From assembly GCA_022842645.1 (NCBI GenBank), contig JALHPE010000003.1, positions 10,445-74,444 of the forward strand: 64,000 nucleotides of DNA, given 5' to 3'. The position numbers and the translations under genes are program-made. Shown here piece after piece: positions 4,169-52,763 of this stretch. The notes below the pieces were generated by a model. It ran no database searches. It saw only the letters and a program-made list of their open reading frames with translations, and was not told the DNA's origin. This DNA comes from Minisyncoccota bacterium (GTDB taxonomy: Bacteria > Patescibacteriota > Minisyncoccia > Phycocordibacterales > UBA2100). The stretch's first letter is position 1; each line of letters opens with the position of its first letter.

Positions 4169-5908
4169 TTATTGTGTCGTAGTTTCATCAGGTATACTTT
4201 TTTCTTCGCTTGAGGCTTCGCCTGCCGGAATTTCTGTGACAGCCACTTGATCTGCCTCATCGCCGAGAAGCAATGGGCTCAGCGTGTTAACTTCCGAAAA
4301 TGGCACCCTCTTTGCGAACGCCTTGAGTATAGCATCCTCACGCATCGTGCGCATACCTTGACTTCGTGCGGCAGCCCACAGTTTAGAATCCACCGGGTTC
4401 GTAAGCACGATTTTCTCAATCTCTGACGACATCTCTAAGACCTCAAACACTGCTGCGCGCCCTCGCATGCCGGTAGGACATGCTGCAGAGCGTTCTGGCT
4501 CATACACTTCGTTTGGTATGGGAAAACGATATTTTGCGGGAATCGTCGACAGGTCTTTTTCGATCGCTGTACGATCGCTTGCAGAAAGTGGCACCGGTTT
4601 CCCCGTGCCGTCACAGAGCGTACGCACGAGACGCTGTGCCATAGAGAGTATCAGCGTCGAAGGAATGAGGTACGGTTCGACACCCATGTCGATAAGACGC
4701 GGAATGGTACCCACGGCATCGTTAGTGTGAATCGTCGAAAGCACGAGGTGACCAGTGAGTGCTGCTTGCATCGCGAGCTTCGCCGTCTCACCATCGCGAA
4801 TCTCACCCACCATAATGATGTCGGGATCTTGGCGAAGCGTGGTGCGCAGACCATTTGCAAAAGTGTACCCAATTTCTGGTCGCACCTGCGACTGAATGAT
4901 GCCCTCGACGTGATACTCAATCGGATCTTCGAGTGAAAGAACATTCTGATGTTCACGATCGAGTTCGGCGAGCATGGAATAGAGTGTGGTGGATTTACCT
5001 GAGCCTGTAGGGCCTGAGATAAGAATGAGACCGTGCGGCCGCTTGATTGCCTCACGGATCAGACCTAAATCGCGCTCAGAAAAACCTAAATCGCCGAGTG
5101 GAATAAATCCCTGATTACGATCCAGAATACGCATCACGATCTTTTCTCCCATGTAGGTGGGAAATGTCGAGACACGAAAATCGATCTGGCGGTCGTCGAA
5201 TGATGCGGAAAAGCGACCATCCTGTGGCTTGCGTCGTTCATCAAGACGGATCGAGGAAAGCACCTTCACACGTGCAATGATTGCGCGGTGTGTTTCCATA
5301 GGGAGGACGACGCTCGTATGCAATTCTCCATCGACACGATAGCGCACACGCACCCCTGCACCAGTCGGTTCGATATGAATATCAGATGCCTTGCCATCAA
5401 TGGCATAGCGCAAAATCGTGGAGACAATTTTTACTGCAGGAGCATCTTCCCGAATAGTGTCGTTCCCTCCTCCTTGCCCCGCGAGATTCCCGAGCTGAAG
5501 CAAATCTTCTTCGTCGGAAAATTCCTTGGGAGCATCGTCTTTCTTTCGCACCTGCTCTTCGCTTTGTAAATCGGAGAGTGCGCGATCGACGTCCCCTCCA
5601 AGCCCTCGGTACATTTGTATGACTTTTTCGATGTCAGAATCCGGAATCTTAAAGAGCTTAAATGGCATCCCTGTTTTACGCGTGATGAAATTTAAGGCAT
5701 CGATAGCCGCGATGTTATCGGGATCTACAATACCAATCTCCAAAACTCCCTCCACGACAGCAAGCGGCGCAAAACGATAATGTTCCGCCGACTCTTCGGG
5801 AATATATTTCAATATCTCGTACGGAATCTTTGCCGAACCGAGCGTTCGCTCCGGCAGTGCCGAAGAAAAGCCGGACCCCGTGCCGCGTAAATCGGTGGGC
5901 GGAGGCAT
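4169..5908 (-). CDS. pilB: type IV pilus assembly ATPase PilB (GspE family)
   Basis: 579 aa. Walker A LILISGPTGSGKSTTLYSML, Asp box and His box of GspE/PilB secretion ATPases, N-terminal GspE_N-like region. Confidence 0.85.
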   Translation of the reverse strand: MPPPTDLRGTGSGFSSALPERTLGSAKIPYEILKYIPEESAEHYRFAPLAVVEGVLEIGIVDPDNIAAIDALNFITRKTGMPFKLFKIPDSDIEKVIQMYRGLGGDVDRALSDLQSEEQVRKKDDAPKEFSDEEDLLQLGNLAGQGGGNDTIREDAPAVKIVSTILRYAIDGKASDIHIEPTGAGVRVRYRVDGELHTSVVLPMETHRAIIARVKVLSSIRLDERRKPQDGRFSASFDDRQIDFRVSTFPTYMGEKIVMRILDRNQGFIPLGDLGFSERDLGLIREAIKRPHGLILISGPTGSGKSTTLYSMLAELDREHQNVLSLEDPIEYHVEGIIQSQVRPEIGYTFANGLRTTLRQDPDIIMVGEIRDGETAKLAMQAALTGHLVLSTIHTNDAVGTIPRLIDMGVEPYLIPSTLILSMAQRLVRTLCDGTGKPVPLSASDRTAIEKDLSTIPAKYRFPIPNEVYEPERSAACPTGMRGRAAVFEVLEMSSEIEKIVLTNPVDSKLWAAARSQGMRTMREDAILKAFAKRVPFSEVNTLSPLLLGDEADQVAVTEIPAGEASSEEKSIPDETTTQ

Positions 5909-5910
5909 AT

Positions 5911-6255
5911 CTAATTGCCTCGTGGTTTAGACGAGGTTCCTGCCGTAGGAGTAGTGGTTCCCGACCGCGTGATTGGCAAGAATGGATTCGGGCGACCAAC
6001 CGGCTCAGGCATGATTTGGGTTCCCGTATCCACAAGCCGGAGGAACGCGGGGTCGGAAAGAATCGTTCCCGCAAGCGTAATCGTGCGTAGCTGAAGAAGT
6101 GTCTCAACGACATCACCATCACTCGAGCCCTGCACGGTTAAATCTTGAGTTGTGAGAAGTGGCTCGGGCGTCGTATCGCGGAGGAAGAGATACCAGCCCG
6201 CAAACGCCGCAAGGACACTGCCGAGTATTAGTATGAGTGTTGTGTTATTGGCCAT
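5911..6255 (-). CDS. small single-TM pilus-operon protein (PilP-like position)
   Basis: ORF with internal start MANNTTLILILGSVLAAFAGWYLFL (one TM), Thr/Pro-rich tail. Sits between pilO-like and pilB; 8-bp overlap with the upstream gene. Confidence 0.4.
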   Translation of the reverse strand: MANNTTLILILGSVLAAFAGWYLFLRDTTPEPLLTTQDLTVQGSSDGDVVETLLQLRTITLAGTILSDPAFLRLVDTGTQIMPEPVGRPNPFLPITRSGTTTPTAGTSSKPRGN

Positions 6256-6262
6256 ACGTAAT

Positions 6263-6829
6263 TTATTTGAGCCAGTAGGTGCGGAGCGTGACGTCAAAGC
6301 GGTACAAAGGCTCAGTGCCTTGGGCGCTCAAGTCAGGATCCATACTGAGCTCCACAAGATCAACAATGCGCAAACTATTCTCTAGAGCATTCATAAACTC
6401 CACGAATTTCGGGTACGAACCGCTCGTGGCAAATTTAAGAGTGAGCGAATCGGTTTCATTGTAATCTGCACCAATAACCGCTGCGTCCCCGGTGTTTGCA
6501 GTAAGTCCTTGAGCATCGATGACTACGTTTTGCAGGGCAAAGCCGTGCTTCGATGCGAGTGTGTCGAGATCTAAGACGAGGCGCACATTGTCAACGTGAT
6601 CCGGAAGAAGTTTCTTCAGACGATCAATGTCGACCGGATTGAATGCGTTATATCTCGAGAGCAGTTGCTGTTTCAAACGCTGCAGTTCATCGGCTTTGGA
6701 GAGCGCACTATCATATTCGGTGATTTGTACTTGCATGGCGCGCGCACCGTCATACGCAGGCTTCGTATACATCACAAAGATTGCGACCGATGCAGCAAAG
6801 AGAGCGATAGTAAAAATAATACGCATCAT
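6263..6829 (-). CDS. pilO: PilO-like pilus assembly protein
   Basis: 188 aa, N-terminal TM (IIFTIALFAASVAIFVMY) then coiled-coil and periplasmic domain. Gene order pilM-pilN-pilO. Confidence 0.55.
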   Translation of the reverse strand: MMRIIFTIALFAASVAIFVMYTKPAYDGARAMQVQITEYDSALSKADELQRLKQQLLSRYNAFNPVDIDRLKKLLPDHVDNVRLVLDLDTLASKHGFALQNVVIDAQGLTANTGDAAVIGADYNETDSLTLKFATSGSYPKFVEFMNALENSLRIVDLVELSMDPDLSAQGTEPLYRFDVTLRTYWLK

Positions 6830-7512
6830 AGAGTTTCTGGTGTTCCTTGCGGCTCACCAGCAGGTTCGAGCGGCGTGCCGAACGGTGTGGGGAGTGCGGA
6901 TTCTTCAGTTTGATCTGGCAATGTCACCTGCGCCGCGCGATACCGTAGTTTGGTTGGATCAACCGCAGCAGTAAAATCAAAGCGCACCCCCTCAATAGTC
7001 CTATTGATGTTGGAAAAAATCGGATTAAGAATGAGACCACTTCTCGCTAAAAGATCCGCCTGAAGCGCGATGGAATTGACGCTCTGTGCAACCCCCTGCA
7101 TCGCAATACCCATTTCGGTGTCATTCTGGGCAGTGAAGCTGAAGTTTGAAAACGCGACCGTCTGGAGCGTCAGCTGCTGTAACAGTTCGAAAATATCAGA
7201 GGGAGCAGTGTGCGTCGCAAGCACCTCATCAGCAGCTTTCATACGATCATCAAGACGCGTGAGCTCGCTGATAAGCGCAGGCTCGAATGCTTCTTTCGCT
7301 CGCTGCAGCTGCGCACGCTTGCTCTCCGCAGCAGTCGAGAGGTACTGCACATATAAAAAGACGCCAACTGCGAGTACGACGGAAGCAAAAAAGAGCACCA
7401 ATGAGACGAGGAGCCCGAGATCAGCGCCACCTTTTTGCTCGCGCCGTCCTCCAGCACTCGGCGCCGAAATAGGTGCTTGTGGTATAAACGAAGAACGAAT
7501 GTTTGATTCCAT
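6826..7512 (-). CDS. pilN: PilN-like pilus assembly protein
   Basis: 228 aa, single TM (LVSLVLFFASVVLAVGVFLYV) followed by coiled-coil. Directly downstream of pilM with 4-bp overlap to pilO. Confidence 0.55.
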   Translation of the reverse strand: MESNIRSSFIPQAPISAPSAGGRREQKGGADLGLLVSLVLFFASVVLAVGVFLYVQYLSTAAESKRAQLQRAKEAFEPALISELTRLDDRMKAADEVLATHTAPSDIFELLQQLTLQTVAFSNFSFTAQNDTEMGIAMQGVAQSVNSIALQADLLARSGLILNPIFSNINRTIEGVRFDFTAAVDPTKLRYRAAQVTLPDQTEESALPTPFGTPLEPAGEPQGTPETL

Positions 7513-7530
7513 AGAAAGTCCCTAACTTTC

Positions 7531-8682
7531 CTAGCCCTTCCTGAGTTCACGTAACGCGAGTCCGACCGGCACTGCAAAACCAGGGCCGATCGACTGAAGC
7601 ACTTGATCAAGAAATGCCGGTGCTTCAGTACGACTAAACGGATTCGCAATTTCCACCTGCGCGTGGAGCGCCTGATTCGCAAATCCTTGAAGTCCAGGAA
7701 GCGATGCGCCACCACCGCACAAAAGCACGTGCGACACATCTTTATTGTATCGCTTCCCGTAGCTCAATAGTACCCTATCAGCCTCTCCAAAGAGGCGCTC
7801 GAGTGTGGATAGAAGAGACTGCTTCACTTTATCATTTTCATCGACAGAAAAAGCTGAGGAACTGGTGAGCCCGCGCTCGCGCTTCACGCGCTCCGCTTTC
7901 TCAAAATCCCACGAAAGCGAGCGCGCAAGATGTTCGGTCATTTGTTGGCCACCGACCGTCGCGAGATGCGTCATGCGCACTACCCCGCGCTCGACGATAT
8001 ACATTTTTGTTGTTGAGGCACCCAAGTCAATCACCAGAACTGGTGCCAAACCATGGCCGAGGGAGCTCCGAATTGCACTGAAGATTTCTATTTCATAAAA
8101 ACGCGTGGAAAGTCCGGCGCCCGCGGCGATCGTCTGAAAATTGCGCACTGTATCGTTGTGAATGGCAACGAGAAGCACTTCTTGCCCCTTACTCTGAAGC
8201 GCCGTTTTGCCTTGAATACGATCAAAGGCCGCATCGCTTCCTTCTTCGGGCGGAATAACGAACCAATCAAGCATAACTTCCGAAACTGGCACTGGAATAT
8301 ATTTACGCGCCTCGATCGGAATCATTTGTTTTAAATGTTCCGGGTCAGTTTTGGGGAGATCGATAATCGAAACAAGGCTCGAAGAGAATGGTATCGACAT
8401 TCCCGCAACCTTTGCCGTGACATTCGCCTCCCGCATGAGGTCGAGCAGTGCTTCGGTTAAGGTTTCCGGCGAGAGCTTTACTGCTTTCCCCACTGGTTCT
8501 TTCGCATAGGGAGCAAGCGCGATTTCGCCATAGGTCTCGAGGACTGCCGCACCATGCGCAGAACGAAGTTGCACCACTTTTGCAGACGCCGCGCCTATGT
8601 CGACACCAATAACGCTACTCTCGGTTTTTCCCGTGAGCGCGGCAGAAAGCTTTTGCGTGAGCGTCCCTAACGATAACGCCAT
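7531..8682 (-). CDS. pilM: type IV pilus assembly protein PilM (actin-like ATPase fold)
   Basis: 383 aa. N-terminal VIGVDIGAASAKVVQL typical of PilM/FtsA-like proteins. Two actin-fold halves. Confidence 0.8.
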   Translation of the reverse strand: MALSLGTLTQKLSAALTGKTESSVIGVDIGAASAKVVQLRSAHGAAVLETYGEIALAPYAKEPVGKAVKLSPETLTEALLDLMREANVTAKVAGMSIPFSSSLVSIIDLPKTDPEHLKQMIPIEARKYIPVPVSEVMLDWFVIPPEEGSDAAFDRIQGKTALQSKGQEVLLVAIHNDTVRNFQTIAAGAGLSTRFYEIEIFSAIRSSLGHGLAPVLVIDLGASTTKMYIVERGVVRMTHLATVGGQQMTEHLARSLSWDFEKAERVKRERGLTSSSAFSVDENDKVKQSLLSTLERLFGEADRVLLSYGKRYNKDVSHVLLCGGGASLPGLQGFANQALHAQVEIANPFSRTEAPAFLDQVLQSIGPGFAVPVGLALRELRKG

Positions 8683-8731: not shown

Positions 8732-8765
8732 CAACTGGCTCAAATGGCGCCGATTGAGCCAGTTG
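8732..8765. repeat. ~34-bp palindromic element (copy 1), overlaps the RT stop codon
   Basis: CAACTGGCTCAAA TGGCGCCG ATTGAGCCAGTTG: 13-bp arms with one mismatch. A second 7-bp hairpin CACACGC/GCGTGTG lies at about 8776-8796. Confidence 0.5.
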
Positions 8766-9789
8766 CATATATGCGCCTCACACGCGCCTGAAGCGTGTGC
8801 GCATTGCCATGGGAGAGTAGCCCCAGATATGAATCGCGGACATGTTTATTCTCAGTGTGTGCGGCACAGTTCCGCAACATCCGTCGCTTCGTAGTCGTGC
8901 GCAGGACGCAATGGTCGGGAAAATGCACCCAGCCGAGGAAATCAACTCCAGACGCAAGAGTTGAAATTGAGATTTTGTTAGGATGCAGTTCGAGCTTGAG
9001 TGTCTCGCGCAGAAATACTGCTGCATGCGGCAGCATTTCTGTGAGTTCTCTGCGATCATGCGATAGAAAGACGAAATCATCCGCATACCGAATGTAGTAT
9101 CGTACCCTCAAGTGGTGTTTTACGAATTGGTCGAATTCGTTCATATAGATATTGACGAGAAGTTGCGAGGTAAGATTGCCGAGCGGCAGTCCCTTGCTAG
9201 GTACTCCCGAATCAAAGCTTGCGATAACGCGTCCGATGAGATCGACGATACGTTTGTCGCGAATGTGAGACGCAATAATGCGCATAAGCGTTTCCTGGTC
9301 GATCGAAGCAAAGAATTTCCGTATGTCGCATTTCAAGACCCAACACGTATGCGTATGGTTGCGCGAGACTTTGTATGCAAACGAGCGAAATCGATTCATC
9401 GCATGATGCGTGCCTTTCCCATTTCGACATGAGTATGAGTCCGCGATGAAGGTGCGGTCGAAGAATGGGTAGAGCTTGCGATAGAGCGCATGATGCAGGA
9501 GTCGGTCACGCACTGTGGCTTTGTGGATGTTTCTTGGCTTTGGGTCGGAGATGTTGAAGGCGCGGTACGGACCGTGCACGTATGTTCCTGCAACCAAGTC
9601 ACGATTGAGCGCAAGAATATTATCCATCAATCGATATTGAAATTCCTGCACATCTTGTTTCTTTCGCTTCCCGCGCACGAATTTCTTCCATGCCGCAAGG
9701 AGATTCGGAGCGGAGATGATATCCTCGTAGGTATGAGCGAAGACAAGATCCACACACCTAAGCCTGCCCCCCCCCTCACCTTTTTGCAA
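8740..9789 (-). CDS. DGR-type reverse transcriptase
   Basis: 349 aa. RT motifs: VLKCDIRKFFASID (motif A), LPLGNLTSQLLVNIYMNEFD (DGR-type [I/L]GxxxSQ instead of group-II/retron QGxxxSP), YIRYADDFVFL (YxDD), LELHPNK, FLGW thumb. No maturase/endonuclease domain. The true start may be the downstream GTG at 9753, because a C9/G9 homopolymer lies in codons 5-8. Confidence 0.85.
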   Translation of the reverse strand: MQKGEGGGRLRCVDLVFAHTYEDIISAPNLLAAWKKFVRGKRKKQDVQEFQYRLMDNILALNRDLVAGTYVHGPYRAFNISDPKPRNIHKATVRDRLLHHALYRKLYPFFDRTFIADSYSCRNGKGTHHAMNRFRSFAYKVSRNHTHTCWVLKCDIRKFFASIDQETLMRIIASHIRDKRIVDLIGRVIASFDSGVPSKGLPLGNLTSQLLVNIYMNEFDQFVKHHLRVRYYIRYADDFVFLSHDRRELTEMLPHAAVFLRETLKLELHPNKISISTLASGVDFLGWVHFPDHCVLRTTTKRRMLRNCAAHTENKHVRDSYLGLLSHGNAHTLQARVRRIYATGSIGAI

Positions 9790-9795
9790 CCGAAG

Positions 9796-10167
9796 CTCGT
9801 GCCCATAATTGAAAAAACTAAGGGTGCATACAAACTCTGGATACAGGCGCGGAGAAATATGCCGCGAACGGAACAGTTTGGGATTGGCAAGAAAACTGAC
9901 GATCTTTTTTTGATGCTTATGGAAACACTGCGCCGCGCATCATTTGCGGCGCATCAAGAGAAAATACCACTTCTCACTCATGCGGTTGGGCTCACGGATT
10001 CGCTCCGCTTTTTCCTTCAGATCGCATGGGAAAATGTTTTGGTCCGTCAGAATCAATACATTCCCTTAGCAACTGAAATCGAAGAGATTGGTCGCATGAT
10101 AGGTGGATGGCGCAAGGGTCTCGTTGCAAAAACCCCGCTTGAAAAAAGCGGGGAAAGAAAAGAGTAG
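9796..10167 (+). CDS. avd: Avd-like accessory variability determinant (four-helix-bundle protein), encoded antisense between TR and RT
   Basis: About 123 aa from GTG 9796 (ATG at 9859). N-terminal AYKLWIQA resembles the LxVWQKA start of Avd/TIGR02436 proteins. C-terminal ATEIEEIGRMIGGWRKGL resembles the conserved Avd C-terminal helix (E..RML.GLI). Stop codon TAG 10165-10167 abuts the TR. Orientation is opposite to RT/TR, which is atypical. Confidence 0.5.
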   Translation, partial: LVPIIEKTKGAYKLWIQARRNMPRTEQFGIGKKTDDLFLMLMETLRRASFAAHQEKIPLLTHAVGLTDSLRFFLQIAWENVLVRQNQYIPLATEIEEIGRMIGGWRKGLVAKTPLEKSGERKE

Positions 10168-10282
10168 CGGGAAGCAACCTGGTTGCCAGCATTCCACTCG
10201 TTCGGATTCGTCACGGAGTTCGCGAACAAGCTCCACCCACCGTTGTCGGAGTTCCAGTTCGCGTTCACGGCCCAGAGTGCTT
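10166..10282 (-). repeat. DGR template repeat (TR), sense on minus strand
   Basis: 117 bp, 111/117 identical to 10614-10730. All 6 mismatches have T in the TR on the plus strand (A on the sense strand): 10244, 10253, 10259, 10264, 10265, 10282. The first 78 bp (10166-10243) are identical. Confidence 0.75.
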
Positions 10283-10535
10283 TGTGCGTAGTGCCATCTT
10301 GTATCACCACAGTTCGACCCGCCAACTGGCGGATCTACGCCGCTGTATCGCATACGGGACCTCGAAGTCCTCCAGCATCACGCACCGATTCTTATCTTTT
10401 TTGAGGCATTCGCTCGTACGCTTACGCGAGACGCATCCAGCGCAATACTGACGACACGAATGAACGAGGTGCTGCACAGAAGTCGCGACCGCCGCACTCA
10501 AGCTATCCTCAGGGGTTAGTGTATCAAAAGTAAAA

Positions 10536-10574
10536 GACCCTCTAAATCCTGCTTGCGCGAAGATTCAGAGGGTC
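10536..10574 (-). promoter_or_regulatory. hairpin just downstream (sense) of the VR, candidate DGR homing-enhancing stem-loop
   Basis: GACCCTCT (10536-10543) pairs with AGAGGGTC (10567-10574), 8-bp perfect stem and ~23-nt loop. About 40 bp 3' of the VR end on the sense strand, as described for DGR VR-flanking cruciforms. Confidence 0.4.
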
Positions 10575-10611
10575 AAAGTATCTCAAACCCAAATTTCTCA
10601 GGGTTCAAGAA

Positions 10612-11241
10612 TCAGCGGGAAGCAACCTGGTTGCCAGCATTCCACTCGTTCGGATTCGTCACGGAGTTCGCGAACAAGCTCCACCCACCGTCGTCGGAGT
10701 GCCAGTGCGCGAACACGGCCCAGAGTGCTCCATTCTTGTCACGGACGTAGAAAATATTGGCGTAGCCATTCGTAAGAAGGTTGCCCTTCTCGCCGTTCGG
10801 TTGTTTCTCCAACATCGTCCACAGGTCGGCGAGGTATGTTTCGTGCGCCTCACCGAGCTCCTTGATGATCGGCCCGTCGACCGATGCCTTGCGAAGCGTG
10901 TGAAGCTTCAGCTCGCCTGCCGGAACGTTTTCCTCGACCTTCGCGAAGTTATCGCGGAAATTGTCCCAGACGAATGCGATCTTCACCGCTGCCTTTCGGC
11001 TGGTGTCGACCTTGAAGTGGTCTGCGGCGACAAATCGGCCGGCGCCGGATACGACAACGGTTGCGACGAAGTCGAGAAGATTCGATGCGGACTTCTTGCC
11101 GTTCGCACCAAGCGAATGGTTAAGAAAGCCCTGCATGTAGCTTCCGTCGATACTTCCGTCTTCGATCTGCCGGAACAGATCTTTGAGCTGAGAGGCCGTC
11201 ACATTGGACGAACCCTCGACGACAACTTTCTGAGCTGCCAT
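10612..11241 (-). CDS. DGR target (variable) protein, 209 aa, C-terminal VR; no signal peptide
   Basis: C-terminus ...KNGALWAVFAHWHSDDGGWSLFANSVTNPNEWNAGNQVASR is encoded by the VR. TR-encoded version ...ALWAVNANWNSDNGGW... has AAC/AAT (Asn) codons at the variable positions. N-terminus lacks a signal peptide or TM. Confidence 0.7.
   Translation of the reverse strand: MAAQKVVVEGSSNVTASQLKDLFRQIEDGSIDGSYMQGFLNHSLGANGKKSASNLLDFVATVVVSGAGRFVAADHFKVDTSRKAAVKIAFVWDNFRDNFAKVEENVPAGELKLHTLRKASVDGPIIKELGEAHETYLADLWTMLEKQPNGEKGNLLTNGYANIFYVRDKNGALWAVFAHWHSDDGGWSLFANSVTNPNEWNAGNQVASR
10614..10730 (-). repeat. DGR variable repeat (VR) at the 3' end of the target gene
   Basis: Counterpart of the TR. VR bases at the mismatch positions are C, G, G, A, A, C on the plus strand (sense-strand TR A -> G, C, C, T, T, G). 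Ends exactly at the target stop codon (10612-10614). Confidence 0.75.
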
Positions 11242-11342
11242 TGGTTTTTCTCCTTAAAGAGCATCCGGCACTATTGCCGAAGTGAAAACATCATACCACG
11301 CTACCACCCAGTTTGCAAGAGCGTAAAACGGGGCTCAAAACA

Positions 11343-11390
11343 GGGCTGTTTCAGCCCCACTGGCTCAAACGGCGCCGTTTGAGCCAGTTG
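11343..11390. repeat. small hairpin plus ~33-bp palindromic element (copy 2), between the wHTH pseudogene and the DGR target
   Basis: GGGCTG TTT CAGCCC (11343-11357), then CACTGGCTCAAA CGGCGCCG TTTGAGCCAGTTG (11358-11390). About 90% identical to copy 1 over ~36 bp. Confidence 0.5.
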
Positions 11391-11399
11391 CCATTGGGG

Positions 11400-11932
11400 C
11401 TAGGTTAGCGCGTAAAATGGTCTTTTCTGCTTCCCCACCCTGGTGAGGCGACCAGTTGTGGCAAGCTCGCGCACATAGCGGCTGGCTGTTGCATCGGAAA
11501 CTCCGAGAAGAATCTGCACATCGTTGTTGGTAATTTTCCCGCGCTCGCGTGCGAGGGCGACGATTTTTCGAGACGTGCGCGCTTTTTCCCAGCGCGTTTT
11601 TCAGCTGCGTAAGCGCGCCATGTTGCAATGCTTGGAGGAAGAGGTGCGGGCGGAGGGGTGAGGGGCACGGATATGGATGATGCCGAGGGTAGAGTGGCCG
11701 GCTCTGCATGTAAAACTGGCACCTCGGATTCAGTAGCACTTTCAATGTGGGACTTACGAAGTCCCACATCAGTCGCAAGGGGCTCCATGACGGGTTTCGG
11801 AAACTCGTCATTCACCTCTGGTGTAGATTCGGGAGCTGGCTCTTGTGCAACTTGTAGGGGTACTACAACCGGCTCCTCTACTACTTCAGGCACTGGTGTC
11901 GGTTCTATAGGCACGCTCGCCTCAGCGGTCAT
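11400..11932 (-). pseudogene. proline/acid-rich N-terminal ORF plus C-terminal winged-helix HTH in a different frame (candidate frameshifted DNA-binding protein)
   Basis: Frame B (11405..11932) encodes a Pro/Glu-rich low-complexity peptide ending ...AEKRAGKKRARLEKS. A second frame ending at TAG 11400-11402 encodes RKIVALARERGKITNNDVQILLGVSDATASRYVRELATTGRLTRVGKQKRPFYAL, a wHTH like Fic/RecG-type C-terminal domains. It is preceded by an in-frame TGA and has no start codon. The frames meet around two A5/T5 runs near 11584-11600. Confidence 0.35.
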
Positions 11933-12255
11933 AGCACTGCATCAATTTTCGCCGCAACAATAAAGTCGTTTTCGGAAAGACCTTGCACCGAGTGCGTGGA
12001 GAGTTCAATTTCCACACGACCCCAGGAGAGCGAGACATCCGGGTGATGCCCTTCTTCTTCCGCGATTGCCGCAACTTTTGCCACAAAATCAAACGCCGTT
12101 TTAAAATCGGGGAATTTGAATTCTCGGGAAATGGCGCGTGCGGCTGGCCAGAGTGTCCATCCATGTATTTCTTTGAGCAAACGTTCGGCTTCTTGCACGG
12201 GAAGTGGCGGACCACCAACTTCACAGGGTATGCACTTTTTTTCCGAGAGTGTCAT
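11929..12255 (-). CDS. phhB: pterin-4a-carbinolamine dehydratase (PCD/DCoH)
   Basis: 108 aa with the EEGHHPD signature and overall PCD fold pattern. Confidence 0.85.
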   Translation of the reverse strand: MTLSEKKCIPCEVGGPPLPVQEAERLLKEIHGWTLWPAARAISREFKFPDFKTAFDFVAKVAAIAEEEGHHPDVSLSWGRVEIELSTHSVQGLSENDFIVAAKIDAVL

Positions 12256-12935
12256 GCCATAATGCTACCATGCTCCGCCTCTTTCAGGTGGTTGCGTCCT
12301 CTCTCCAGGCGGTGCTCGATATTGTATTGCCACGCAAAGACCGCGCAGTGCGCGCCGCGCATTATTCGAGCGACTCACTTCCCGTTTCCCCGCTTACCCA
12401 AACCTACGGCGGCGTTTCGATCACCTCACTCCTCTCATACCAAGATCAAGCAGTGGAAGATTGCATTCGCGCGCTTAAATACGATGCCTCGGGTGCGGCG
12501 GCGCACATTCTTGCGGAGATTGTCGCTGAATACCTGCGAGAAGAAATTGCCCAGATTCGCGCGTTCAGTACCGAACCAATCTTATTGGTGCCCGCGCCGC
12601 TCCATCCACGAAGGTTTCGTGAACGTGGTTTTAATCAGGTTTCCCTCGTACTTGAGCGTCTCCCCAAAGAATTCCGAGACGGCACGCTCGCAACACTTTC
12701 ATTTGGCGTGATTGAACGCGTAAAAGAAACACGGCCACAGACACATCTTTCTCGCACCGAGCGCATGGAGAACGTAAAAAATGCCTTTGCCCTTGCAGAA
12801 CGCGACGCGGCCGCGCACTCTCATATCATCCTTATCGACGACGTCACGACGACGGGCGCGACGCTTTTCGAAGCGTCGCGCCCACTTGAACGCATTCACG
12901 CATCATTCACCCTCCTCGCACTTGCGCGCGCCTAA
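12204..12935 (+). CDS. comFC: ComF-family phosphoribosyltransferase-domain protein
   Basis: PRTase signature HIILIDDVTTTGATLFEA; LVPAPLHPRRFRERGFNQ region conserved in ComFC/GntX. The real start is probably the internal Met near 12270. Confidence 0.7.
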   Translation: MADHQLHRVCTFFPRVSCHNATMLRLFQVVASSLQAVLDIVLPRKDRAVRAAHYSSDSLPVSPLTQTYGGVSITSLLSYQDQAVEDCIRALKYDASGAAAHILAEIVAEYLREEIAQIRAFSTEPILLVPAPLHPRRFRERGFNQVSLVLERLPKEFRDGTLATLSFGVIERVKETRPQTHLSRTERMENVKNAFALAERDAAAHSHIILIDDVTTTGATLFEASRPLERIHASFTLLALARA

Positions 12936-12951
12936 CTATCAGTGTTTTTCC

Positions 12952-13824
12952 CTATGGATTACAACGCCCGCAATATTTCGGATCTGCAACATTCCCATAC
13001 TGCGTCACCTGTGTTTTTTCTGTATGACCACACGTGTCGCATTGATACATCTCATAAAGTGGCATATCGGTGGGGAGCGCACATACAGCACATGGAAGCC
13101 CCCGTTCAATGTTTGTGACGTGAAAACCTGGCGCATGACATCGTGAACATCGTGCATTCACATGTTGTAAGAGATCCTCTGTCGCCTTCTCTATTGCACG
13201 CATGCGTGTCGGATTTTTATGTGCACGCATATCGGTTTCAAGAAATACACGTTTTACAAAAGGGCGTTTGAGCATCCGATCCACCTGCGCAACCAATGCT
13301 TCTTCGGTTCGTATCTCCTTATGAATTCCCCACGGCCATCTCTTGCCAGTGCGAACAATAATGCCATGTTCAGGAAAGCCGATCTTGCGGGCAAATGCAC
13401 GAGCCTCCTCCACATTTGTGACCACACACTCATCAAGGTTTGTTTCTGTCGTGCGATGATGGCCGCGGATCTCATATCCATGGAGAGCATCAAGCAGGAG
13501 GACAAGCTCGAGATTTGAATCTATAAAAGGAAGTGAGGGATGCGCACCAAAACTCCCCTCGCTTGCCACAGCGAGGTCAGTGCCGGTGTTCTCCATGGCA
13601 ACACGCGCTTTTGCGCGTGCCGCTTCAAGCTGATTGCCTGCCCTTTTCACCTCTCGCGTAAACGTTCCAAATCGGTCTGAATCAAAATCCTGAGGTACCA
13701 CAACCTTAACACCTAGGTGTTCCTCAAGAAGGGGCGCAATAACGCGCTCCTTCCCATGCATAGTTGCTACAACGAGTTTACGACCCTTGAACGGCGAAGT
13801 ATGCTGCATATCTTTTGATACCAC
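12952..13824 (-). CDS. hypothetical protein with C-terminal Cys-rich zinc-ribbon pairs
   Basis: 290 aa. C-terminal CSRCH...CAVC...CDTC...CGRC arrangement. No confident family assignment. Confidence 0.4.
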   Translation of the reverse strand: MVSKDMQHTSPFKGRKLVVATMHGKERVIAPLLEEHLGVKVVVPQDFDSDRFGTFTREVKRAGNQLEAARAKARVAMENTGTDLAVASEGSFGAHPSLPFIDSNLELVLLLDALHGYEIRGHHRTTETNLDECVVTNVEEARAFARKIGFPEHGIIVRTGKRWPWGIHKEIRTEEALVAQVDRMLKRPFVKRVFLETDMRAHKNPTRMRAIEKATEDLLQHVNARCSRCHAPGFHVTNIERGLPCAVCALPTDMPLYEMYQCDTCGHTEKTQVTQYGNVADPKYCGRCNP

Positions 13825-23405: not shown

Positions 23406-23764
23406 AGCTTTGAGAAAACACAAAGCCCGCCACCAGGAGGGTTTTTAGGCCCCTACTAGGGTTTCCCCTAATAACGCGTTCAACGCCCTGAATGACGGGT
23501 TGTCTATGTTGAACGCGATTCGCGACCATGCCGCCGTTTCCGAGGGTTTAGGTCGTTGCTCTTTCGAGCCGATATTGGTTGTGTAAAGAGCATGATAGCT
23601 CGAAAACAAGCTACCGTACAAGACCCTAGCTTAGTAATCGGAGGTTGCGAAGGGTTACCAACAGCTGGACTTTCAGAGAAAGTATCGCTTGGTATATCTG
23701 ACTCTCAGAAAGATTTTAATTACTCAACTTCTGAATATAAACATCGTGTCTGCGTTATCTATTT

Positions 23765-52365: not shown

Positions 52366-52763
52366 GGGGGTGACTGGTTTCGATAGAAAATTCAGTCTGC
52401 CTGTGTGCAAGACGGAAGCGAACATCTTCCTTAAAATGTTCAAACTCTAAGTGCAAACAAAACTGCACAGGGGGTTCTCTCACCGATTCAGGTGAAAGAC
52501 CTCGGCCTCGTCTTCGCTTAAACGCGTCCGACGACCGTTCGTCTGGTTGGTATCCGATACACCAGGTTCGAACGTCATATACATCGGATTCGGCTTCCCT
52601 ATCACACCGTAGGCTAGTTTAAAGAAAGAGTGTCCGGTTTCGTACGATCTTGAACATTCCTTACGTACGATTCTTAAATCTCAGAATGTTCTACGTCTTG
52701 TAGAATCGCTTGCGGATCATTTTTTACACGGGAGTTCGATTCTCCCCACCTCCACAAATACAA
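52366..52763 (+). ncRNA. ssrA: tmRNA (ssrA)
   Basis: 5' GGGGGTGACTGGTTTCGATAG (tRNA-like acceptor plus D-loop analogue). 3' T-arm GGAGTTCGATTCTCC followed by CACCTCC-A pairing with the 5' end, including the G3-U wobble identity element for alanylation. Downstream of smpB, followed by a terminator. Confidence 0.75.

Follow-up and report, generated by a model that had tools for sequence, protein, structure and literature searches.

The stretch of DNA analysed here, a 64,000-nucleotide segment of contig JALHPE010000003.1 from a Minisyncoccota bacterium (the window; all positions are in its own numbering), carries at 8740-11241 what is, with very high probability, a complete chromosomal diversity-generating retroelement (DGR) of the B3 layout, in a bacterium of the Patescibacteria, or Candidate Phyla Radiation (CPR). 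Its genes and repeats are as follows.

8740..9789, minus strand: DGR reverse transcriptase (RT); the longest open reading frame (ORF) runs from a TTG at 9789, and the likely start is a GTG at 9753, giving 337 amino acids
9799..10167, plus strand: avd (accessory variability determinant), 122 amino acids, on the strand opposite to the template, the RT and the target
10166..10282, minus strand: template repeat (TR), which is non-coding; read in the frame of the variable region, almost all of its 26 adenines occupy the first two positions of AAY codons
10614..10730, minus strand: variable region (VR), the last 38 codons of the target gene plus the T of its stop codon
10612..11241, minus strand: target (variable-protein) gene, 209 amino acids, with the VR as its C-terminus

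The two repeats are direct copies of 116 nt each (10166-10281 and 10614-10729, offset by 448 nt), and an ungapped alignment shows five internal mismatches, at plus-strand positions 10244, 10253, 10259, 10264 and 10265. At the 5' (sense) edge of the repeat there are two extra T versus C differences, at 10282 and 10283. At all seven differences, five internal and two on the boundary, the TR copy has a T on the plus strand, which is an A on the minus (sense) strand; the first mismatch off a sense adenine is at 10284 (G versus A) and marks the 5' end of homology. A preliminary description, made from the letters of the sequence, had counted six of six mismatches on template adenines. Strand-aware pairwise alignment bears this out: the sixth of those mismatches (10282) lies on the boundary, the seventh (10283) obeys the same rule, and every difference is on a template A up to 10284, where similarity ends. 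With T making up 26 of the 117 bases of the 10166-10282 copy, we calculate the chance of six out of six mismatches falling on T as ~1.2e-4.

When the adenines in each half of the TR were replaced by N, the resulting patterns each matched the TR and the VR without a mismatch and nowhere else in the 64-kb window; 0 matches were expected by chance. The window thus contains one template and one target, and no second target was found in its 64 kb, whether by this adenine-masked search or otherwise. In the VR frame the TR has nine Asn codons and just two adenines at codon position 3, and its translation ends in ALWAVNANWNSDNGGWSLFANSVTNPNEWNAGNQVASR; the genic copy reads ALWAVFAHWHSDDGGWSLFANSVTNPNEWNAGNQVASR, followed by the stop codon. 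The changed adenines fall on positions 1 and 2 of AAC codons and convert N to F, H, H and D in the 5' third of the VR. These translations, and the pattern of adenine changes in Asn codons, are as the preliminary description gave them, and its reading of the pair as a DGR stands: the A-bearing copy is a non-coding template, overlapped by unsupported ORFs only, the other copy lies within a gene, and the RT, Avd and related loci provide independent support.

The RT matches RVT_1 with E = 1.8e-25 and contains the motifs LGNLTSQ (of the LGxxxSQ type) and YADD. Its best match in the PDB is the 328-residue reverse transcriptase of 8ub7-8ube (E = 1.6e-44), which we take to be the DGR enzyme bRT from Bordetella phage BPP-1; retron-type and group II RTs come next (best 3e-21, ~1e-21). 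Placement of the RT in the DGR clade rests on these motifs and this closest structural relative, as the libraries searched contained no DGR-specific profile. The product of avd, a gene found in about 74% of DGRs, matches the bAvd-like family PF22296 (E = 4.5e-10, 40.4 bits against a cut-off of 40) and the DivGenRetAVD family NF033474 (E = 7.5e-15; 55 bits, under the curated cut-off of 80). We picked its GTG start at 9799 by comparison with a related locus, L003. The gene sits between the TR and the RT, and its stop codon overlaps the last TR base.

To place the element, we searched a collection of species-representative genomes, which does not include the genome of the window, for relatives of the RT; at least 579 stretches matched, and we used the best 80. 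RT relatives are 60-79% identical to the window RT (79% for the best of them) across hundreds of Patescibacteria genomes. Where the titles of the best 80 name a lineage, it is one of the Patescibacteria lineages (Kaiserbacteria, Paceibacterota and others) or a Saccharibacteria-labelled bin, bar two, from bins labelled Gammaproteobacteria and Azotimanducaceae. In 56 related loci we identified 57 TR/VR pairs, whose mismatches nearly all affect a template A; per pair, a median of 57% and a minimum of 30% of adenines are changed. The order in the window, a target with a C-terminal VR, then the TR, avd on the opposite strand and the RT, is common to these 56 loci, and wherever avd was found in a relative it sits immediately upstream of the RT and on the other strand. 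Wu et al. 2018 (PMC5758913) report the architecture called B3, TR-(avd)-RT with avd on the reverse strand, in 90% of CPR DGRs, and the window coordinates match both this order and the orientation of avd. In L003, whose RT is 69% identical, the neighbours are also the same: pterin-4a-carbinolamine dehydratase, target, TR, avd, RT and pilM/N/O. Because L003 has the same genes around its DGR, the element is old at its present chromosomal site. The window is chromosomal, and carries a transfer-messenger RNA (tmRNA), tRNAs and a LOOT RNA.

Conservation across these loci extends to non-coding sequence. The spacer between VR and TR is 248-405 nt long, mostly 315-365 nt (331 nt in the window), and its sequence is also conserved across the clade. 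Its TR-proximal part contains a structured leader, and further elements flank the leader and the TR.

10284..10496, minus strand: structured non-coding leader of ~215 nt, comprising P1, P2 and a three-helix P3 domain
10496-10487/10484-10475, minus strand: leader helix P1
10454-10435/10432-10414, minus strand: leader helix P2
10400-10389, minus strand: leader A-run and strand a
10385-10374/10295-10284, minus strand: leader helix P3, enclosing P3a (10372-10366/10361-10355), P3b and an inserted hairpin specific to the window
10128..10164, minus strand: 3' element of the template RNA, consisting of strand a', a hairpin and TTTTT, antisense within the last avd codons
10518..10526, minus strand: extended -10-like box TGATACACT (clade consensus TGATATAAT), a conserved block at the start of the alignment

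For the window and the 56 relatives together, we aligned 240 nt of sequence upstream of the TR. The RNAalifold consensus has 44 pairs, 39 of them with compensatory changes; it is made up of two hairpins, P1 and P2, and a closed domain of several helices (P3, P3a, P3b), whose end lies 1-2 nt short of the TR. In this alignment 95.8% of cells are paired, compared to 69.5% in shuffles, and 700 cells are changed on both sides, compared to 203. The covariation score is 0.78 against 0.27 for shuffled alignments, none of 500 of which reached 0.78, and sliding the partners lowers it to 0.12-0.17. The window has 42 of these 44 consensus pairs. It also has an extra hairpin, at ~10336-10317, at a site where several relatives have insertions too.

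A covariance model of the P3 domain found one match per cassette in 70 of 81 sources, including 14 loci outside all of the RNA alignments. The matches are always on the RT strand and just 5' of the TR (for example, L023 1412-1532 and L014 5380-5500), and that in the window, at 10281-10416 on the minus strand, scores 72 bits (E = 4e-13). Across 877 kb the only other match is a weak one, at 12830-12972 on the minus strand of L020 (30 bits, E = 0.0014), ~6 kb from the L020 DGR, which may be a second or degenerate cassette. Rfam 15 has no family for the leader or for the other parts of the template RNA; searches of 10050-10700 at gathering thresholds and at E <= 10 gave chance-level hairpin matches. 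Upstream of the leader, a conserved TGnTAnAAT box stands before P1. The box at 10518..10526, which a generic promoter scan did not call, is a candidate promoter for transcription of the template RNA.

Just 3' of the TR lies a second structure. In the window a terminator scan identified an 8-bp hairpin, CCCCGCTT-TTTTC-AAGCGGGG (10153-10133), followed by TTTTT. A hairpin and T-run follow the TR in 51 of 57 TR/VR pairs (those of the 56 relatives and the window), compared to 2.5% of shuffles and 1 of 57 when the sequence after the VR was taken instead. These hairpins are GC-rich, have a median stem of 9 bp and start ~12 nt after the TR, with the T-run behind them. We relied here on per-locus counts with shuffle controls; a MAFFT/RNAalifold consensus was poor, and stems and loops vary in length. 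An Avd-binding stem-loop just downstream of the TR, most commonly of 9 bp, has been predicted for 207 of 278 DGRs (bioRxiv 10.1101/2023.10.23.563531), and the hairpin seen here corresponds to it.

The linker between TR and hairpin pairs with the leader. Strand a, the leader segment just 5' of P3, has the consensus AAAUGAAGA and in the window reads AAAGATAAGA at 10399-10390; its partner, the linker just 3' of the TR, has the consensus UCUUCAUUU and in the window reads TCTTTTCTTT, with strand a' itself (CTCTTTTCTTTC) at 10164-10153. The a-a' duplex is ~9 bp long and shows compensatory variants such as AAACGAAGA/TCTTCGTTT, AAAGTGAG/CTCACTT and AAATAAAGA/TCTTTATTT. In a fixed register, 80.8% of positions form canonical pairs, compared to 65.4 +/- 1.6% when loci are permuted. 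An unconstrained RNAduplex comparison of leader and post-TR linker was uninformative, and anchored and fixed-register tests were used instead. The template RNA appears to end ~38 nt after the TR, and the RT would therefore need its own promoter or read-through.

The sequence 3' of the VR includes two features.

10560..10611, minus strand: motif array of about six T-G-purine motifs (YTTGR-like) with a period of ~8 nt, weaker than the clade version
10526..10574, minus strand: hairpin GACCCTCTGAATC...GATTTAGAGGGTC; in the minimum-free-energy fold the stem-loop spans 10574-10536 and is followed by a T-run

In the relatives, CTTAG occurs in the first 60 nt after the VR at 35 times its rate in the rest of the loci, CTTTG at 17 times and CTTGG at 13 times. 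The array has a dominant spacing of 7-8 nt, is strand-specific and begins directly after the target stop codon (L002-L079). A strong hairpin is found at the same place after the array in most relatives; judged from its fold and the T-run, that at 10574-10536 is probably the terminator of the target gene. The last 14 nt of the repeat (GGTTGCTTCCCGCT) are GC-rich, adenine-free and the same in both copies, and homology stops abruptly after them. With identical repeat ends, flanking sequence must tell donor from recipient, which makes the array a candidate discriminator; from its position it may mark the recipient for homing. We also considered the leader as a guide complementary to the DNA past its own VR, an idea that was not supported, as cognate pairs ranked 20-22 of 57 in a crude test.

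The target protein has 402 homologues, all of them from Patescibacteria where an organism is named, and their C-termini are hypervariable in the same columns as the VR. Neither Pfam nor NCBIfam contains a match to the family. The homologues share the C-terminal pattern LWAVxAxWxxxxGGWxVxAxSVxxPxxWxxGxQVxSR, whose x columns are those that the window TR encodes as Asn. An AlphaFold2 model built from 39 sequences has a predicted local distance difference test (pLDDT) score of 86 overall and >95 from residue 60 onward, and Foldseek searches with this model returned no significant match in the PDB or BFVD. The VR-bearing domain may have a remotely C-type-lectin-like fold, to judge from the prediction. 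C-type-lectin-fold variable proteins known from DGRs include Mtd and TvpA (2y3c). An archaeal and CPR sub-type of such proteins is cited by Wu et al. 2018 (PMC5758913).

The window VR is a two-part mosaic. Its 5' 39 nt (10692-10730) carry the A-to-N changes, with five of 10 adenines changed, the normal density for the clade, and its 3' 78 nt (10614-10691) have the sequence of the TR, with none changed of the 15 adenines that lie 14-77 nt from the repeat end. By our arithmetic, the chance that all five changes would fall within the first 10 of 25 adenines is 252/53130 = 0.005. The relatives provide a baseline. Across 55 of their TR/VR pairs, 6% of adenines differ within 0-9 nt of the repeat end, whereas between 10 and 130 nt the figure holds steady at 54-66%; set against this uniform rate, five changes among 10 adenines of the 5' part and none among 15 of the 3' part identify a mosaic. 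At clade rates, 15 untouched adenines have a probability of ~1.3e-6. The longest identical 3' tail in the 57 pairs from relatives is 34 nt and the median 20 nt, and relatives have 8-25 adenines changed, compared to six TR/VR differences and a pristine 78-nt tract in the window. This baseline shows that the protected end is small and makes mosaic VRs recognisable.

The preliminary description had noticed the 78 identical nucleotides, which are real and include the 15 unmutated template adenines, and had offered two explanations for them. The first, an end protected in the manner of an initiation of mutagenic homing (IMH) sequence, is refuted by the clade rates, since relatives spare just the last ~10 nt (6% changed, against 54-66% beyond). 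The second, a recently homed VR, survives in part. In DGR homing the 3' end serves as the anchor and the 5' boundary varies (PMC5758913), and the polarity of the VR fits such homing, with the 3' part renewed and the 5' part older; an ordinary mutagenic event, though, would not have spared 15 adenines.

Two explanations of the mosaic remain to be weighed. Quite possibly, though we would put it somewhat below an even chance, the mosaic exists in the cell and an unmutated TR copy has recently replaced the 3' two thirds of the VR, through either RecA-type gene conversion between the DNA repeats, which are 331 bp apart, or homing with a faithfully copied complementary DNA (cDNA). The two-state pattern (0.005 by chance), the normal clade density of changes in the 5' part, the agreement of the polarity with 3'-anchored homing and the concordance of two assemblies on the VR sequence all favour this explanation. 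Each route has its difficulty, however. Faithful copying of 15 adenines has a probability of ~1.3e-6 at clade rates, TR-to-VR recombination is rare in the reconstituted BPP-1 system (PMC12875486), and a conversion tract would have to extend to the adenine 14 nt from the repeat end, leaving scant homology for resolution.

A plausible but rather less than even prospect is that the tract arose in assembly, by collapse or chimerism: the 3' part of the VR would be hypervariable in the population, and the assembler would have followed k-mers shared with the TR or the plurality base A. This would imply a highly active DGR in which 3'-anchored homing often halts short of the 5' third of the VR. The 78 nt are common to TR and VR, so that de Bruijn graphs with short k cannot separate the copies, and an independent Logan contig, from SRR28154513, which equals the window exactly over 10614-11749, terminates exactly at the repeat boundary 10614; it confirms the sequence without phasing it. 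Logan contigs are built with k = 31. In the clade, ~40% of adenines per site remain A, which would make A the plurality base in a diverse pool, and a variable 5' homing boundary is known for DGRs (PMC5758913). Against collapse, the same VR sequence is found in two assemblies, the window contig is unbroken through VR, spacer and TR, and none of 56 relatives from similar data has a tail >34 nt, although a common collapse should recur.

However the tract arose, we conclude that the window contains a DGR, because its repeat pair has A-only mismatches, its RT is DGR-like, it encodes Avd, its VR is C-terminal, related loci exist and its layout matches B3; the covarying leader found once per cassette, the hairpin after the TR in 51 of 57 pairs and the same chromosomal position in L003 lead to the same conclusion. 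A drifted segmental duplication of the 3' end of the gene, or a dead DGR relic, with an A-bias but no current function, would be in keeping with just 5-7 differences and with the lack of population variation in public assemblies, but is very improbable given that all differences are on A (~1e-4 by chance), that the RT and avd are intact, as are the leader RNA (42 of 44 pairs) and the 3' hairpin, that the template is composed of AAY codons, and that a relative (L003) has kept the cassette at the same locus.

Several observations do weigh against reading this locus as a DGR at work. The mutagenesis expected of a DGR is absent from the 3' 78 nt of the VR. Public assemblies contain a single VR allele, the protein cluster having one member and the Logan contig being identical, and to judge from these sequences current activity has no direct support. 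There is no IMH/IMH* difference within the repeat, as the 3' ends of TR and VR are identical; identical IMH/IMH* pairs do occur in some DGRs (Wu et al. 2018, PMC5758913). Finally, transcript ends, priming site and protein-RNA contacts are all inferred.

With these points in mind, we propose that a minus-strand RNA of ~380 nt would be transcribed, beginning at the -10-like box near 10520 and ending with the hairpin and U-run (10153-10128). It would consist of the structured leader (P1, P2 and the P3 domain), the 117-nt TR and the 3' stem-loop, structures for which covariation is the evidence, with the 9-bp duplex between leader and post-TR linker closing the TR into a loop. The functions we suggest for these parts follow by analogy the 'cPRT Stop' duplex and the Avd-binding stem-loop of BPP-1. 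From what is known of the family, the RT and Avd would copy the TR into cDNA and misincorporate opposite adenines, the only template bases at which differences are seen. The cDNA would then replace the VR from its 3' end, recoding Asn (AAC/AAT) codons on the remotely C-type-lectin-like domain of the target.

The element belongs to the known B3 class of CPR DGRs, and finding a DGR is ordinary for this lineage. It resembles the B3 DGRs described from CPR bacteria (PMC5758913) in gene order and orientation, in its single target with a C-terminal VR, in host lineage and in having a target with no recognisable domain, and differs from them in nothing of kind. As a DGR it adds one example to a class already abundant in CPR bacteria.

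Comparison with the BPP-1 DGR (mtd-avd-TR-brt) reveals likenesses and differences. The two share A-specific transfer from TR to VR, an RT of the same clade, Avd, a C-terminal VR, a stem-loop just 3' of the TR and duplex-forming sequences on either side of it. In BPP-1, avd is on the same strand and lies between VR and TR, whereas the window avd lies between TR and RT on the opposite strand. The BPP-1 RNA needs a structured 'Sp' of 140 nt on the 3' side of the TR, but on the 5' side 20 nt are enough (bioRxiv 10.1101/2023.10.23.563531). Unlike BPP-1, the window has ~38 nt from TR to U-run, followed by antisense avd, and a structured domain of ~215 nt 5' of the TR. The duplex enclosing the TR in the window is like the BPP-1 'cPRT Stop', but its upstream strand lies ~105-115 nt 5' of the TR instead of adjacent to it. 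BPP-1 has an IMH that differs from IMH* and a GC-rich cruciform, in place of which the window has identical repeat ends and an array of short motifs after the VR. Finally, BPP-1 is a phage element, whereas the DGR in the window is chromosomal and lies beside pilus genes.

We consider the following generalization doubtful but worth stating: B3 DGRs of CPR bacteria may use an autonomous template RNA of ~380 nt with its protein-binding or priming domain 5' of the TR, an array of CTTNG-like motifs spaced by 7-8 nt may mark the recipient VR in place of an IMH/IMH* difference and cruciform, and the mosaic VR of the window may reflect partial, 3'-anchored homing. If so, the B3 template RNA would amount to a rearrangement of the BPP-1 RNA, in which the functional spacer lies 3' of the TR. 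The literature we compared contains no description of the leader RNA or of the array downstream of the VR, although Paul et al. 2017 may describe RNA features; Handa et al. analysed just 40 nt upstream and 100 nt downstream of TRs (bioRxiv 10.1101/2023.10.23.563531). The leader and the array flanking the VR are clade-wide and may be new, whereas the mosaic VR is an oddity of the window copy. If they are indeed undescribed, leader and array would provide handles on cDNA priming and on the choice between recipient and donor in the commonest DGR type of 'microbial dark matter'. To our knowledge, neither priming nor recipient/donor discrimination has been resolved outside the Bordetella phage model.

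Other features of the window are as follows.

4169-8682, minus strand: type IV pilus assembly cluster (pilB-like ATPase, pilO, pilN, pilM), directly downstream of the RT
23438-23554, minus strand: LOOT RNA, 65 bits
44272-44343, minus strand: tRNA-Ile, anticodon TAT
52366-52757, plus strand: tmRNA, tag ANKTAQGVLSPIQVKDLGLVFA

The pilus cluster also adjoins the RT in L003 and, in part, in L008; most relatives lack this adjacency. The DGR cassette is flanked on both sides, at 8732-8766 and 11359-11391, by copies of an almost perfect palindrome of 30-33 nt (ACTGGCTCAAAYGGCGCCRTTTGAGCCAGT), and the last eight codons of the RT and its stop codon sit within the first of these copies. We considered the palindromes as att sites or cassette ends and rejected this idea, as no relative has flanking repeats and L003 occupies the same site without them. 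The palindrome occurs singly in five unrelated metagenome contigs (L082-L086) with no DGR genes nearby, and is thus better regarded as a dispersed element than as a cassette boundary. Between the upstream palindrome and the pterin dehydratase gene (11929-12255) lie ~540 nt (11392-11928, minus strand) that hold only overlapping Pro/Ala-rich ORFs of 175 and 148 amino acids, neither matching a known family. L003 lacks this segment, and there the DGR target follows directly after the dehydratase gene.

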